A program made the translations under genes and the position numbers. Below the pieces are notes generated by a model that did not search any database, had not been told where the DNA came from, and saw only the letters and a list, made by a program, of their open reading frames with translations. From positions 1-33,237 of the forward strand of contig CAXHJY010000009.1 of the NCBI GenBank assembly GCA_964016885.1: a DNA stretch of 33,237 bases, given 5' to 3'. Each line of letters begins with the position of its first letter. The first letter of the stretch is position 1. The stretch comes from Eledone cirrhosa (lineage: Eukaryota). Shown here in pieces: positions 1-21,011 of this stretch.

Positions 1-500
1 TATATACGGATTAACAAATAATAGTTAAATGCAGTCCACTTAGGTGAAGTCCAGTTATGGTATTCCAGGTAGTGGATGATATTAACGCTTGGCTTGGTTT
101 GACTCAACAAGGCGTTTTCATAGTGATGCTGCGGGTATGCTGTAATTCCTATGTTGTAAACACTTGGAGTAATAATAAATCAGGAAAGAAGGTTTACATG
201 GTTTGCTATACAAAAAAGTTTTTAATCACATAGCTTACATTTGTTTCACTGAACTGGTATGTCTAGAGATCGCTATCCGCCTAATACTCCATATTTTCTT
301 TTATTTTCTTGCCTGTGTATTTTCTTCATTCTCGCATGCTCCGAAGATCTGACTGGTTATAATTCTGTATTGGCGATCGAGTGACGCAAAATTAGGCGGA
401 TAGCGATCTCTAGACATACCAGTTCAGTGAAACAAATGTAAGCTATGTGATTAAAAACTTTTTGTATAGCAAACCATGTAAACCTTCTTTCCTGATTTAT
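1..500. mobile_element. HHR-bearing fold-back retroelement fragment (Penelope-like pseudo-LTR)
   Basis: Inverted arms of ~110 bp (175-285 vs 391-500). The right arm ends in (TA)n; the left arm continues with an extra tail (1-174). Confidence 0.6.
331..450 (+). ncRNA. Type I hammerhead ribozyme
   Basis: Stem I TCGCATGCT/AGCTATGTGA; core CCGAAGA (341-347); stem II base CTGACTGGT/ACCAGTTCAG with a long insertion; GAAAC-AAAT-GTA (429-440). Confidence 0.7.
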
Positions 501-710
501 ATATATATATATATATATATATATATATATATATATATGTATATATATATATATGTATATATATATATGTATATATATAAATATATACATATATATATGT
601 ATATATATATACATATAAATATATGTATATATATATACATATATATATATATGTATATATATATATACATATATATATATATATATATACATATACATAT
701 ATATATATAT
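499..710. repeat. (TA)n microsatellite
   Basis: Direct reading. Confidence 0.95.
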
Positions 711-771
711 AAGTAAAGCGGTTAAACCAGTGTTCTAAACAGTTTATAACACTGGTTTAACCGCTTTACTT
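711..771. repeat. 24-bp-arm hairpin abutting an HHR element
   Basis: AAGTAAAGCGGTTAAACCAGTGTT / AACACTGGTTTAACCGCTTTACTT. Confidence 0.9.
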
Positions 772-968
772 CCCTCCGAAGAAGAGATATTATCTCGAAA
801 ATTAAGGACATTTAAATAAATCTAAGGTAAAAGACTAATTGTCAACAATATCTTTTGCATTTGCATTCTTTATTCTATGTCCATACCTGCATTGGTTTGG
901 CTTTATTATACATATACAAACGTTTATACCTCATTACACAATGCTTCAAGTGAACTATAACCTCCTCC
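770..968 (+). mobile_element. ~200-bp HHR element, copy 1 (copy 2 at 18851-19049)
   Basis: Near-identical to 18851-19049; both end AACCTCCTCC followed by (TA)n. Confidence 0.75.
772..808 (+). ncRNA. Minimal type I hammerhead ribozyme
   Basis: CCT-CCGAAGA-A-GAGAT(ATT)ATCTC-GAAA-AT-TA-AGG; stem III is reduced to a palindromic AATT. Confidence 0.65.
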
Positions 969-1016
969 ATATATATATATCAAAATGAAAATTAGAAGGC
1001 ACCGTAAAATTTCCAA

Positions 1017-1105
1017 TCATTTTAATCACAACACATGTTTCAATAATGGATAGATCGATCGTGAAGCCATGATCGATTATCACTTATCTCATCAGGTGAA
1101 AATGA
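1017..1105 (-). ncRNA. Type I hammerhead ribozyme
   Basis: Minus strand: TCATTTTCAC-CTGATGA-GATAA...ATCGATC..GATCGAT...TTATT-GAAAC-ATGT-GTT-GTGATTAAAATGA. Confidence 0.75.
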
Positions 1106-1227
1106 ATTGTCTTCAAATTCTCGATATGAGGGAGAAAATTAGCAAAGTTCAGTCACAGAGTTTATTCCCTCAAAATGTATTGGACCCTATTGCACAACCA
1201 ATAATACACCTTACTATATAAAAACTA

Positions 1228-1560
1228 CATATATATATATATATATATGTATATATATATATATACATATATATATATATATATATATATATATATATAT
1301 ATATATATATATATATATATATATATATATATATATATATAATATACATATATCTATATATATATGTATATATATATACATATATATATATATATATGTA
1401 TATATATATACATATATATATATATATTTATATATATATACATATATATATATATGTATATATATATACATGTATATATATATATATATATATATATATA
1501 TGTATATATATATACATATATATATATATATGTATATATATATACATATATATATATATA
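1228..1560. repeat. (TA)n microsatellite
   Basis: Direct reading. Confidence 0.95.
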
Positions 1561-1650
1561 ATGTAGGAGGTGAGTTTTATTGTAGTACAATAAAGCAATG
1601 CAGATATCGGATAAGAAGCACTCTACAGTTTGTGGGACTGGAGTATGCAT
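1561..1650. mobile_element. Terminal fragment shared with the HHR elements at 18285-18500 and 19268-19459
   Basis: 1561-1613 is the reverse complement of ~18449-18501. Confidence 0.7.
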
Positions 1651-1667
1651 AATATAATATAGATATT

Positions 1668-3460
1668 ATATATATATATATGTATATATATATACATATA
1701 TATATATATAATATATTATATATATATATATGTATATATATATACATATATATATATATATATTATATATACATATATATATATATATATGTATATATAT
1801 ATACATATATATATATATATATTATATATACATATATATATATATATGTATATATATATACATATATATATATATATATTATATATACATATATATATAT
1901 ATATGTATATATATATACATATATATATATATATATATATATATATATACATATATATATATATATGTATATACATATATATATATATATGTATATACAT
2001 ATATATGTATATACATATATATATATATATGTATATACATATATATATATATATACATATATATATATATATATATATATACATATATATATATATATAT
2101 ATATACATATATATATATATATACATATATATATACATATATATATACATATATATATACATATATATATACATATATATATATATATATATATATATAT
2201 ATATACATATATATATATATATATATACATATATATATATATACATATATATATATATACATATATATATATACATATATATATACATATATATATATAT
2301 ATATACATATATATATATACATATATATATACATATATATATACATATATATATACATATATATATATACATATATATATATATATACATATATATATAT
2401 ATATATACATATATATATATATACATATATATACATATACATATATATACATATATATATATACATATATATACATATATATATATATATACATATATAT
2501 ACATATATATATATACATATATATATATACATATATAAATATATATGCATATATATACATATATATATATATACATATATATACATATATATATATATAT
2601 ACATATATATATATATATATATACATATATATATATATACACATATATATATATATACATACATATATATACATATATATATATACATATATATATATAT
2701 ATATACATACATATATATATATACATACATATATATACATATATATATATATATACACATATATATACATATATATATACACATATATATGCACATATAT
2801 ATACATACACACATATATATGCACATATATATACATATATATATACACACACACATATATATATATATATATATATATATATATATATACATACATATAT
2901 ATATATATATATATATATATACATACATATATATATATATACATATATATATATACATATATATATATATACATATATATATATATATATATATATACAT
3001 ATATATATATATATATATACATATATATATATACATATATATATATACATATATATATATACATATATATATATATATATATATATTTATACATATATAT
3101 ATATATATATATATATATTTATATATATATATATGTATATATATATATATATGTATATGTATATATATATATATGTATATATATATGTATATGTATATAT
3201 ATATATATGTATATATATATGTATATATATATATATATATATATATATATATATATACACATATATACATATACATATATACATATACATATATATATAT
3301 ATATATATACATATACATATATATATATATACATATACATATATATATATATATACATATATATATATATATATATATATATATATATATATATATATAT
3401 ACATTTATCTATATATCTATCTATCTATATCTCTCTCTCTCTCTATATATATATATAAAT
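1668..3460. repeat. Long imperfect (TA)n/(TACA) microsatellite
   Basis: About 1.8 kb of TA with CA/TG interruptions. Confidence 0.95.
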
Positions 3461-19267: not shown

Positions 19268-19459
19268 TATAAGATCAAAGGATGGTTAAAAGAGTTCCAA
19301 GTATTTTATTATGCGCATTTCAAAAACAAATATAATCATGGGATGATATCTGCGTTCTCATCAGATAAAATAGGGAGACATGATATGAAGCTTAAAAAAA
19401 CACTTGTGAGCAGTGAAGTTTTAAATCAACCCTCATATCACAATAAAACTCACCTCCTA
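19268..19459 (-). mobile_element. HHR element, copy 2 of 18285-18500
   Basis: Diverged copy with a ~20-bp internal deletion and the same ends. Confidence 0.75.
19302..19372 (-). ncRNA. Type I hammerhead ribozyme
   Basis: TATTTTAT-CTGATGA-GAACGCAGATAT...ATATTTGTTTTT-GAAAT-GCGC-ATA-ATAAAATA. Confidence 0.8.
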
Positions 19460-19482
19460 TATATATATTTATATGTGTGTGT

Positions 19483-19600
19483 GTCCCAGGTTCAATCGGG
19501 GGTAACAACAGTAGGTAAGGTACTCAATACATAGCAGAGAATAAATATGATTTCCTTAGAATGAAACAGTTTTAGTCCTGTAGAAGACATTTCTATATTG
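19483..19600. mobile_element. Inverted tail fused to a 5'-truncated HHR (homologue of 17635-17820)
   Basis: GGTTCAATCGGG...GTACTCAATAC followed by ATGA-TTTCCTTAGAAT-GAAAC-AGTTTTA-GTC-CTGTAGAAG. Confidence 0.65.
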
Positions 19601-19676
19601 AATATATATATATATATATATATATATATATATATATATATATATATATATATATATATATATATATATATATATC

Positions 19677-19879
19677 AGATAGGGTGTGGTAAAAACCAGC
19701 TAGACCATAACCCAGCAGAGTACTCGATACTTGGGTTAGTAGAGTGGGCAATATGAAAAGATTCAGAACCCCGACGGCTGGACGGCTGAGATCCGGGAGT
19801 TTCGACAGCTAGATCCCAACAGATCGAATCTAGCTTCCGAAACAGCCGGAGCTCAGCCGACAGGGTCCTGAATCTTTTC
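19677..19879 (-). mobile_element. Hairpin-plus-tail element, family 'GGACCCCGACGGC', copy 3
   Basis: Reverse-oriented homologue of 8798-9010; hairpin 19755-19879. Confidence 0.7.
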
Positions 19880-20029
19880 TTATATATATATACATATATA
19901 TATATATATATATATATATATATATATATATATATATATATGTATATATATATATATATATATATATATATATATATATATATATATATATATATATATA
20001 GTTATGTAATAAACAACATAAGGCAATTA

Positions 20030-20090
20030 TTTCATTTACCAGTGGTTTCTTAAAAGCAAAATAATTTTGCTTTCAATCATCAGAATGAAA
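20030..20090 (-). ncRNA. Type I hammerhead ribozyme
   Basis: TTTCATT-CTGATGA-TTGAAAGCAAAA(TTA)TTTTGCTTTTAA-GAAAC-CACTG-GTA-AATGAAA; all three stems pair. Confidence 0.88.
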
Positions 20091-20371
20091 AAATCCTGGT
20101 GTATTTATTGGCGTTGGATTTAAAAAAACCCTATATATATATATAAAATATATATAAAATATATATATATATATATAGACAATTTATTTCACGTTGCCCT
20201 TTCTACTTGGATTTGGGACCGATAGATAGTATTAGCAATTGGAAAGACCAACGGAAACATTGTTTCCTCGGTCCGATTTGACGAGAGTCGATCGACTGTC
20301 GATATATATATATGTGTGTGTGTGTGTGTGTGTGTGTGTGTGTGTGTGTGTGTGTATGTGTGTGTGTGTGT

Positions 20372-20516
20372 GAGAAAAACCACAGACCCTCCATCTCAAC
20401 TCTACTTTTGAAAAGCAGAAGAACTGCGAAATCGGTAAAGGAACCAAATAAATATATATATATTTTTAAAAAATAAGACTCCAGTTGCATTTTCGATTTC
20501 ATCTTTTTTTCTTTAT
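20372..20516 (+). mobile_element. Single-arm copy of the 9082-9393 element
   Basis: Matches 9248-9393; lies between (TG)n and (TA)n. Confidence 0.75.
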
Positions 20517-20925
20517 ATATATATATATATATATATATATATATATATATATATATATATATATATATATATATATATATATGTGTATATATCTATCTAT
20601 ATATCTATATGTATGTATATGCTTACGGTTTGAACACATTTACTGTATGTACATATCTGTGTTCGTTTTTCTTTTATATTCTATTATAATATACGGCGGC
20701 TCGGAAATATCTCTTTCTTAGACTATTTTGAGTTCCTACCTCAATATATACCTTTGATATATTCGGCTTCGTTAATTTGTTGAGCTATTTCAAATGTCGA
20801 ATAAACGTGGCTGCTATTTTTAGTGGTGTAAGTTTTTGAGACACGCTAAGATACCATGTGCGCTATTACATATAGCACACTATTCAATTTCTTAATATAC
20901 TTAGAAGTGTCTCGGATACTAATTC

Positions 20926-21011
20926 ATCACCCACTGATGAGCTTGAATTGGTAATTCTATTCACAATTAACATTGTAACATTGCGAAACAACAACAAGTT
21001 GTCTGGGTGAT
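20926..21011 (+). ncRNA. Canonical type I hammerhead ribozyme
   Basis: ATCACCCA-CTGATGA-GC...GC-GAA-ACAAC(AACAA)GTTGT-C-TGGGTGAT; GUC cleavage triplet at 21001-21003. Confidence 0.88.

Follow-up and report, generated by a model that had tools for sequence, protein, structure and literature searches.

Hammerhead ribozyme islands at (TA)n in Eledone cirrhosa: very probably the 3' ends of many Penelope-like element families

Results

Features of the window

The window, that is, the whole stretch of DNA that was analysed, comprises 33,237 nt of Eledone cirrhosa (contig CAXHJY010000009.1, positions 1 to 33,237). It contains (TA)n arrays of up to 2.2 kb and the following islands with complete or partial hammerhead ribozymes (HHRs), some of which belong to families linked elsewhere in the genome to Penelope-like elements (PLEs).

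1-497: fold-back insertion of F341, a Hydra PLE 3' end (minus arm with tail 1-290, plus arm 290-497); the same sequence lies beside an intact 808-aa RT-EN frame in loci L307 and L308
332-450, plus: F341 HHR with C4 core, U.U at 10.1/11.1 and long helix II; predicted cleavage after 440
763-968, plus: F776 3' end, minimal HHR with core 776 and cleavage predicted after 804; Nematis-like PLE
970-1222, minus: F1095 3' end (Hydra) with inverted tail 1172-1222; HHR core 1095, cleavage predicted after 1030
5188-5605: F5341 fold-back, no ORF link found; HHR of minus arm intact (core 5341, 3-bp helix II, U.U), core of plus arm mutated (5425)
8802-8990, plus: F9639-type fold-back half-ribozyme with GAAA, helix III and the helix I 3' arm, lacking the first core half
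9095-9428: F9284 fold-back, two intact U3-A8 HHRs (cores 9191, minus, and 9284, plus), Neptune-type PLE (one linked place)
9625-9752, plus: F9639 3' end (Hydra) truncated within helix III; the family's 784-aa frame lies in 3531-bp tandem units
9776-9922, minus: F9907 3' end (Hydra) with AATAAA downstream; the HHR, core 9907, has a palindromic loop III
9925-10098, minus: F10033 3' end, HHR core 10033 (U.U); long copies have at least 2.3 kb of non-coding sequence upstream, no ORF link
10654-10683, plus: HHR core of 11290 type, decayed or recombined, lacking helix I
11218-11330, minus: F11290 3' end, truncated within the first core half
17642-17812: F17771 fold-back that retains both halves of the core but has lost the 5' arm of helix I at the junction
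18290-18494, minus: F18382 3' end with inverted tail 18440-18494 and no ORF link; HHR core 18382 is intact
18589-18794, plus: F18658 3' end (Hydra), HHR with one helix II pair broken
18843-19048, plus: second copy of F776, minimal HHR core 18857
19080-19199: fold-back remnant; intact copies of its family have a C3-A4 core
19273-19456, minus: second copy of F18382 type, intact HHR core 19364
19488-19596: F17771-type half core and tail
19680-19874, minus: F9639-type fold-back half-ribozyme
20005-20127, minus: F20083 3' end (Hydra); the HHR, core 20083, has a helix II of 12 bp and a helix III of 2-3 bp
20381-20503, plus: third copy of F9284, U3-A8 core 20408
20622-21075, plus: F20934 insertion with inverted tail 20622-20770 and no ORF link; its HHR (core 20934) has a long helix I, a helix III of 4 bp and a weak helix II
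31227-31790: tail-only fold-back fragments of another HHR-bearing family within the right-hand (TA)n arrays; in L026, L212 and L359 this tail follows an HHR core at a distance of 100-150 nt

Hammerhead motifs and their conservation

The preliminary description counted about 13 complete or near-complete type I cores at 14 positions. A core of CYGANGA type is present at all 14 (5425+ reads CTGCAGA), and 11 of them have a type I core: C3-A9, G12-A15 and U16-H17 follow the type I order, and either three helices or a palindromic loop III are present. Nine (341+, 776+, 1095-, 9907-, 10033-, 18382-, 18857+, 19364- and 20083-) pass a descriptor requiring helices I, II and III, with a palindromic loop III accepted in place of helix III, and two with a short helix II (5341- and 20934+) pass only after the helix II threshold is lowered. 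The other three are broken: A6 is changed in 5425+, most copies of whose family are intact; the first pair of helix II is G.A in 18658+; and 10654+ lacks helix I, its flanks having no second copy among the loci compared. Three intact U3-A8 cores (9191-, 9284+ and 20408+) had been overlooked, as had half-ribozymes at 8802-8990, 9625-9752, 11295-11330, 17712-17812, 19080-19199, 19548-19596 and 19680-19874. The stems, described as largely unrelated, are so in part; 776/18857, 18382/19364 and 5341/5425 are same-family pairs, and the 14 cores therefore represent 11 families.

Counts no higher than in shuffled islands had been named as grounds for rejecting the motifs, and the observed count lies far above them: the main descriptor gave 12 matches in the window versus a mean of 0.05 (maximum 1) when the same 33 segments (12,260 nt) were dinucleotide-shuffled 100 times. 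Other, stricter versions gave 4 versus 0.003, 5 versus 0.04 and 10 versus 0.03. No match to the main descriptor was found past 20.5 kb of the window, with none in the 4,404 unmasked nt past 22.3 kb. Rfam hammerhead models gave nothing at gathering score on the window and were absent from the 150 of 289 matches listed, which reflects the sensitivity of the library and is not a failure of the criterion that defines the ribozyme. Folding energies of the islands are unremarkable (z -0.2 to -2.2), and the minimum free energy structures of 10033- and 20934+ differ from the hammerhead fold.

In a register test on core-only candidates from unbiased tiles, where helix I was not required, the first three helix I positions pair in 31 of 49 candidates versus 1, 1 and 6 when the register is slid. 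Despite unrelated stems, about 28 multi-locus clusters retain the core and the helices; across 28 such clusters the helix I positions carry five to seven pair types, pairing itself being required by the descriptor there. C3-G8 and U3-A8 covary (22 versus 6), two-sided pair changes occur within F18658, and position 17 is never G, a condition imposed by the descriptor. Many cores are non-standard, with U.U at 10.1/11.1, C4, U3-A8 or A4.

Element families and linked coding sequence

A single-copy status of the islands would have spoken against mobile elements. Every family searched is dispersed, with copies 87-100% identical. As the preliminary description stated, the window itself contains no RT or GIY-YIG coding sequence (tblastn with six PLE proteins, none at E<=0.01). 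It had proposed that such ORFs would be found upstream of the families, and elsewhere in the genome 8 of 15 window families are linked to them, by clade motifs six Hydra, one Neptune-type and one Nematis-like. F341 has an HHR-ORF-HHR arrangement around the 808-aa frame in L307 and L308, and F9639 has its 784-aa frames within the tandem units. An F776 HHR end lies downstream in 11 of 12 loci retrieved with the family's protein, which has Pfam matches to RVT_1 and GIY-YIG. Links were found at four loci for F9907, three for F1095, two each for F18658 and F20083, and one for F9284. The remaining seven (F5341, F10033, F18382, F20934, F11290, F17771 and the A4 family) had no ORF link in the sequence examined.

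The features that define EN+ PLEs were recovered: a single ORF with RT and GIY-YIG endonuclease in those 8 of 15 families, tandem or inverted pseudo-LTRs (pLTRs) with a one-sided tail, and an HHR inside the pLTR in L307 and L308 (F341), L297 and cluster C1 (F9639) and L360-L371 (F776). Direct-repeat HHR ends occur outside the window, with three copies of F776 369-390 bp apart in L351 and copies of another family 570-595 bp apart in L206 and L297.

Each family has two fixed 3' ends, which lie, counted from the cleavage site, at about +20 and +100 nt in F9639 and at about +60 and +235 in F341; at each of them the longer template runs on into 2-4 TA-like nt. The 5' ends are family-specific, and some also spread out to -1500; one family has a sharp 5' breakpoint hot spot inside the ribozyme (76 of 107 fragments).

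The claim that much spacer DNA consists of ribozyme-bearing element termini is supported, with the qualification that other TA-bounded pieces carry no ribozyme (a tRNA-SINE end at 20183-20299 and the end of a 405-bp repeat at 16814 and 17849). The claim of many independent HHR retroelement families holds as to their number but not as to independent invention, since most of the linked ones fall in one published clade, Hydra.

Association with (TA)n

The predicted enrichment of (TA)n at junctions was borne out in 60 unbiased 10-kb tiles, where (TA)5 lies within 250 nt 3' of the cleavage site in 32 of 38 HHRs versus 15.9% of random unmasked positions (P = 3e-20); six of the 38 have no nearby (TA)n. 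For comparison, (TA)5 was found at 16 of 72 SINE 3' ends. CA runs (3/38 versus 7.4% background) and trinucleotide runs (1/38 versus 5.3%) are not comparably associated, whereas GA runs are mildly enriched (4/38 versus 2.9%, P = 0.02). The HHR count per tile correlates with TA content (rho 0.61). TA adjoins the fixed 3' ends in nearly all copies, and in some copies (L004, L005) the 5' junction is against non-TA DNA. Different families meet tail-to-tail over one short TA run (L022, L342). An empty target site without the insertion was looked for and none was found. We infer that (TA)n is a likely target of these elements.

Discussion

The data presented here make it very probable that the window islands represent 3' ends, 5'-truncated or folded back, of at least 15 dispersed families with a type I hammerhead motif that end at (TA)n. 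Eight of these families are linked to coding sequence for a Penelope-like RT and GIY-YIG, and the pile-up of the islands likely results from nicking of and insertion into (TA)n. The pairing of Penelope-like ends, HHRs and (TA)n is already known from the Hydra clade, for which Craig et al. 2021 (PMC8557442) described elements with HHRs inserted in (TA)n, one Octopus family among them.

Clade calls were made from motifs and from published sequences compared by eye, including likeness to Hydra-1_Obim. In agreement with PMC8557442 (section 11), the Hydra-type families share with that clade, including Hydra-1_Obim of Octopus bimaculoides, a single ORF of RT and C-terminal GIY-YIG, RWK/R, DKT, a CxCx5C linker, CxxC, a C-terminal CxH and no CCHH, a pattern found in none of 107 homologs. 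RWK with DKT (in place of DKG) occurs in the F9639 and F341 frames and DKT in pieces of F9907. The CxCX5C linker is present in F9639, F9907, F1095, F18658 and F20083; in F341 its last Cys is changed in L307 and present in L250-type copies. The Hydra-type proteins had no Pfam or PDB match. In a quick tree built without named reference sequences, Hydra-type rows split from F776 and Neptune-type rows with support 99. Other shared traits are a canonical HHR near the 3' end, (TA)n flanks, and tandem or inverted pLTRs with a tail; U.U at the helix II base recalls Hydra magnipapillata families (File S2 of PMC8557442). However, the published clade comprised 27 families, of which the single cephalopod one is known from few copies, whereas six window families and many more are present here at high copy. 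Units are 3.5 kb here and mostly under 3 kb in published Hydra elements, from which the long helix II inserts and the U3-A8 or C4 cores also differ, and tails are 80-180 nt versus the 30-40 bp stated for Naiads and PLEs generally.

The frame linked to F9284, seen in one decayed copy (L348), fits the Neptune pattern, with GxKF, DKG, a CX4CxxC linker (criterion CX2-5CxxC), CxxC inside a C-terminal GIY-YIG and a GIY-YIG Pfam match. The F776-linked frame has GxKF, DKG, a short Cys linker and CxxC inside GIY-YIG (CCHH-type), but its linker departs from the exact CX2-5CxxC of Nematis, making this only a resemblance. As in Neptune/Nematis PLEs, both families have minimal HHRs and end at (TA)n. The HHRs resemble the minimal PLE HHRs of Cervera and De la Pena 2014 (PMC4209133), which are type I with helix III absent or 1-2 bp with a palindromic loop, an extra base after A9 and a U3-A8 variant, and which form many variable families, mostly as single truncated motifs, with opposite-strand pairs 100-700 bp apart. 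Those number about 2,000-9,000 per genome, fewer than here; by contrast, an A4 family occurs here and G10.1-C11.1 is less dominant (12 of 28 clusters, with U.U in 9). Non-LTR retrozymes (PMC7229834; bioRxiv 10.64898/2026.07.22.740005) likewise have type I HHRs at very high copy (126,247 in axolotl), but are 150-450-bp head-to-tail repeats without ORFs, whereas the window islands are single or inverted and many derive from coding elements. An identity with non-LTR retrozymes was rejected; the window islands are not HHR-bearing head-to-tail repeats, and direct repeats elsewhere are few (L351, L206). Naiad PLEs share the (TA)n preference and are present in cephalopods, but have an N-terminal GIY-YIG endonuclease, a DKA motif and no canonical HHR, a combination that fits no linked ORF.

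The GIY-YIG endonuclease, with the Cys linker as a guide, may nick (TA)n. The freed TA end could then pair with TA microhomology of the element RNA and prime reverse transcription. Both cut strands could prime because (TA)n is its own reverse complement, which would yield frequent inverted arms with a one-sided tail. Most copies would end about 40-250 nt from the cleavage site, leaving only ribozyme-sized islands, and every insertion would leave new TA flanks for the next. Inserted copies always run past the cleavage site; the 3' ribozyme would therefore not have been cut in a linear template. Most likely the HHR would act on read-through or tandem transcripts by trimming their 5' end, in most cases as a dimer via the palindromic loop III; alternatively, the template may be a re-ligated circle.

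Several other explanations bear on parts of this model. It seems unlikely that a large share of the islands are not truncation products but non-autonomous units, retrozyme-like or mini-elements, that amplify themselves via short or circular RNAs with PLE proteins in trans. The family-specific 5' ends, the non-coding DNA upstream of F10033, the direct copies in L351, L206 and L297, and the argument that retrozymes derive from PLE pLTRs (bioRxiv 10.64898/2026.07.22.740005) would fit such units. However, the window islands are not in tandem arrays, eight families run into ORFs, 5' ends also spread to -1500, and the spacers at F9639 fold-back junctions differ in 12 of 12, which points to independent events. 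Somewhat less likely still is that the (TA)n runs were partly written by the elements, through telomerase-like or slippage addition at priming, instead of being pre-existing targets. PLE RTs are sister to telomerase (PMC8557442), and TA at nearly all fixed 3' ends, several 5' junctions without TA and the lack of an observed empty site agree with this. Against it stand families meeting tail-to-tail across a single short TA run, window arrays of kilobase length, an association common to three deep PLE lineages with Cys linkers, and the description of published Hydra and Naiad families as (TA)n-inserting.

Turning to the ribozyme itself, we consider it improbable that the motifs are vestigial or passengers, conserved in structure yet dispensable for transposition and mostly non-cleaving. 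Naiads do spread without HHRs, and PMC8557442 (section 15) calls HHR function in EN+ PLEs unclear; in vitro cleavage by minimal PLE HHRs was poor (PMC4209133), many cores here are non-standard and inserted copies run through the cleavage site. On the other side, core and helices persist over unrelated stems, and the covariation, the descriptor-imposed absence of G at position 17 and the two-sided changes in F18658 also weigh against this reading. It is scarcely conceivable that a short motif was matched by chance because the DNA is AT-rich and palindromic, even though one satellite (L211) gave 11 false matches, a false match recurs from one opposite-strand family (cluster C18) and shuffles yield about 2.5 matches per 600 kb. 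A chance origin of the window motifs is refuted by the shuffle controls and the register test, and the motif holds a fixed place at the 3' end of PLE ORFs.

The model of PLE ends inserted at (TA)n explains much TA-bounded 'unique' DNA of this genome as PLE ends invisible to Rfam. In the giant squid annotation, only 235 hammerheads were reported (PMC6962438). The HHR density here is about 1 per 15 kb, which extrapolates to roughly 1.3-2.7 x 10^5 per genome, likely about 200,000 motifs. The literature yielded no report of such a scale, of a high-copy C3-A4 family or of a 5' breakpoint hot spot inside the ribozyme. It is possible, and offered tentatively, that this genome exceeds in hammerhead density every animal genome noted so far (one motif per 15 kb and about 2 x 10^5 in all, in 50 or more families of three PLE lineages, some still active), that (TA)n arrays and PLE ends feed each other, and that the ribozyme region sets the copy stop through an RT block at helix II or a transcript start at that place, so that ribozyme-sized islands are mass-produced, among them tens of thousands whose C3-A4 core works. 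PMC8557442 (section 15) lists as open what the HHR does in EN+ PLEs and why these elements favour microsatellites; both questions become testable with young families whose copies are identical and whose ORFs are intact, and which show fixed 3' ends and hot spots of breakage. Some HHR families here are young and intact, and the set as a whole forms a large natural library of hammerhead variants with U3-A8, C4, A4, U.U and long helix II or III.

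Hammerhead motifs and their abundance

The hammerhead islands of the window, which the preliminary description took to be termini of Penelope-like elements (PLEs) at (TA)n, are real and were correctly interpreted; they represent a known system, in which many of the families are new and the expansion is unusually large. Microsatellites and satellites make up most of the window, which comes from an assembly of 3.0 Gb; its 75 unmasked islands together come to 13.7 kb. Four descriptors of the type I hammerhead ribozyme (HHR), of rising tolerance, were run on the islands and on dinucleotide-shuffled versions of them. 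The first two found 4 and 5 matches versus 0.003 and 0.04 in 300 shuffles, the third found 10 versus 0.03 (300 shuffles), and the fourth and most tolerant found 12 versus 0.05 (100 shuffles). All 14 cores of the preliminary description were present where it had placed them, and nine satisfied the last descriptor. Those at 5341- and 20934+ did so only with a lower helix II threshold, those at 5425+, 10654+ and 18658+ are broken, and three intact U3-A8 cores (9191-, 9284+ and 20408+) and seven half-ribozymes had been overlooked. Helices I and II were recovered in the predicted folds of 10 of the 12 motifs, whose predicted folding energies were not unusual. An Rfam search of the window gave no hammerhead match, and in one listing there was none among the 150 of 289 matches listed.

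Density was estimated from an unbiased sample of sixty evenly spaced 10-kb tiles (599,800 nt), all of them on 20 large contigs. Helix I was not required for a set of 49 core-only candidates with a palindromic loop III; in 31 of these, positions one to three of helix I paired in register, versus 1, 1 and 6 when the register was slid by 1-3 nt. At a score of at least 10 the tiles held 55 descriptor matches, 11 of which are false matches to one satellite (locus L211:7671-8236), whose 32-bp unit looks like a U3-A8 hammerhead. Leaving out these 11 plus-strand matches and all scores below 11 reduced the count from 55 to 39, versus 2.5 in shuffles, and gave a density of 0.65 per 10 kb (bootstrap 0.43-0.90). 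Extrapolation from these tiles of 20 large contigs only yields about 1.9 x 10^5 HHRs in the genome (1.3-2.7 x 10^5). Roughly 4-5 of the 39 matches appear false on inspection, and about 15 further core-complete matches in the same tiles, from short-helix families and the A4 family (the family behind window positions 19080-19199), are missed by the descriptor. The window itself holds 11 matches (score at least 11) in 22.5 kb, about seven times the average density and above every tile. Its TA content is 16% versus a tile median of 2.3%, and HHR matches track TA content (rho 0.61).

The axolotl genome is about ten times larger. In the available parts of the sources, the largest published counts are 126,247 hammerheads in axolotl (PMC7229834) and about 9,000 minimal HHRs in Xenopus (PMC4209133); for the giant squid the number given is 235 (PMC6962438). 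The available text of a 2026 repeat annotation of Octopus vulgaris mentions Penelope-like elements and names neither ribozymes nor Hydra (PMC13282606). No earlier report of HHRs on this scale, of a C3-A4 family or of the breakpoint hot spot described below for family F9639 was found in the open-access literature searched.

Repeat families and their coding sequences

Comparison of the window with itself revealed same-family pairs and many fold-backs. Window islands were also used as queries in eight DNA searches of the genome, and their copies proved to be dispersed and 87-100% identical. Each island query gave 392-3,169 first-look candidates, figures which are not copy numbers. About 15 families, named here by window coordinate, occupy the first 21.5 kb. 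For F341, all 40 copies that were scored are 100% identical. The 426 descriptor matches from 339 loci fell into 60 clusters, of which 28 have two or more members. A few clusters are false; C18, for example, is a real family read on its reverse strand. At three loci (L351:4100-5063, L206:2380-2975 and L297:6916-7489), HHR-bearing ends recur in direct orientation at distances of 370-600 bp, a retrozyme-like arrangement that derives from PLE ends.

From an ORF fragment in locus L025, a family was traced that has 73,357 first-look candidates and carries 784-aa frames inside 3531-bp tandem units. The window islands at 8802, 9625 and 19680 are the 3' end of this family, F9639; its ribozyme combines a U3-A8 core with a long helix III. 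Elsewhere in the genome (G000:C1:437201959-437213163), an intact Hydra element of 3531 bp is present in four copies, arranged head-to-tail and with an inverted 5' arm. An intact 808-aa frame is bounded by F341 on both sides. Four loci of F9907, three of F1095 and two of F18658 have decayed reverse transcriptase (RT) or GIY-YIG endonuclease sequence 1.0-1.5 kb upstream; F20083 has a coding link in two loci at unlike distances. Of 12 loci retrieved with the protein of a different PLE ORF, one with RVT_1 and GIY-YIG matches, 11 carry F776 downstream of that ORF (in one case at the locus edge), and F9284 adjoins a third type of PLE ORF in one place.

Several apparent links were rejected. The L025 ORF is not the coding sequence of F10033, which only adjoins it; the ORF is that of F9639. 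A Hydra RT beside an F776 end (L300) is a chance neighbour, the F776 ORF being of another lineage, and Hydra frames beside F5341 copies (L301, L349) were not counted, their orientation being wrong or the association not recurrent. For seven families no coding link was found among the loci examined. F18382 is counted among them, with an upstream query that was a microsatellite-rich stretch, and the upstream search for F10033 gave no ORF. In two long F10033 copies (L375, L380), an internal segment of 490 bp is tandemly duplicated or triplicated, and no ORF is present over at least 2.3 kb.

In the available text of Craig et al. 2021 (PMC8557442), the Hydra clade is defined by RWK, DKT, a CxCX5C linker and CxxC with CxH, and by the lack of CCHH; canonical HHRs are described as easy to find, and nearly every family as inserting into (TA)n. 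Six of the linked families conform to this definition over the sequence available for them. Neptune, a first guess for all linked families, was dropped on comparison with it. The same text includes Hydra-1_Obim of Octopus bimaculoides in a table, and its HHR table already has a U.U at the base of helix II. The F9284-linked frame agrees with the Neptune pattern and the F776-linked frame resembles Nematis; Hydra-type, Neptune-type and Nematis-like lineages separate in a quick tree made without named reference sequences. Pfam and PDB searches did not recognize the Hydra proteins. One named protein homolog, from Argonauta, is 37% identical. Another homolog, P0040, has a Hydra-type RT and is annotated as coming from a Gammaproteobacteria MAG; it probably reflects animal DNA in a metagenome bin.

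Association with (TA)n and a proposed mechanism

Of the 38 tile HHRs that could be scored for it, 32 have a (TA)5 run no more than 250 nt 3' of the cleavage site, versus 15.9% of random unmasked positions; for SINE ends the figure is 16 of 72. CA and trinucleotide runs were not enriched near tile HHRs and GA was slightly enriched. Each family has two fixed 3' ends, where the longer template runs on with 2-4 nt of TA-like sequence. No empty target site was seen among the loci compared, two matches being coincidental neighbours.

Among 107 F9639 fragments, all from loci retrieved other than through the F9639 protein, 76 have their 5' breakpoint 50 to 30 nt before the cleavage site, as do 11 of 13 fragments of the unbiased tiles. 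This position is immediately 5' of the 3' arm of helix II, and therefore most short copies are half-ribozymes. Twelve fold-back junction spacers of this family were read and no two were alike. Other families have weaker 5' modes, at -70 to -180, with a partial bias from the queries used. In the A4 family, a C3-A4 core is present in at least 21 copies among the loci examined, with 5 intact matches in 600 kb. The available text of Perreault et al. (PMC3088659) describes changes of the HHR core as rare and mentions U4C, and no A4 variant was seen in it.

What was observed is the motif, the way the families are built, their links to ORFs, their fixed ends and the nearness of TA; a mechanism is proposed as follows. 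The element endonuclease would nick (TA)n, microhomology would provide the primer site for reverse transcription, and both strands could prime because (TA)n is self-complementary. Copying would often terminate early, and insertions would build up in nested fashion. The F9639 breakpoint cluster would be explained either by a block of RT at the ribozyme or by run-off at the start of a pLTR transcript. DNA copies reach 20-240 nt beyond the cleavage site, and thus the template carried the 3' HHR either uncut or after re-ligation. Most probably the HHR would process tandem or read-through transcripts, acting mainly as a dimer, a role already proposed by Cervera and De la Pena. Alternatively, some families would be non-autonomous, and for some of them this is supported by the available text of bioRxiv 10.64898/2026.07.22.740005, which ties retrozymes to pLTRs.

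Other repeats of the window

The window also contains the following repeats.
11510-15536: satellite, 49-bp CA/TA-rich unit, about 82 copies, 94% match
27880-29720: higher-order satellite, 26/53/79 bp, ACC/AAC-rich
5982-6772: tandem unit of 188-191 bp with ACA runs, four copies
16814-17218 and 17849-18253: end of a common repeat, two copies, 97.5% identity
20183-20299: 3' part of a tRNA-headed SINE
25445-27870 and 32069-32190: very abundant tRNA-type SINE, cluster of about eight copies
17222-17353, 21115-21375 and 32548-33031: fold-back inversions without an HHR match

The 188-191-bp unit was unmatched in other loci. The common repeat occurs in 42 loci and begins directly after TA or CATA runs, and no HHR was seen in it. 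In one copy of the very abundant tRNA-type SINE, the 45-bp head recurs about seven times, at 27059-27368; the SINE at 25.4-27.9 kb resembles octopod SINEs. The SINE at 20183-20299 also has (TA)n at its end in several loci, and was possibly mobilised by TA-directed elements or possibly shares common targets with them.
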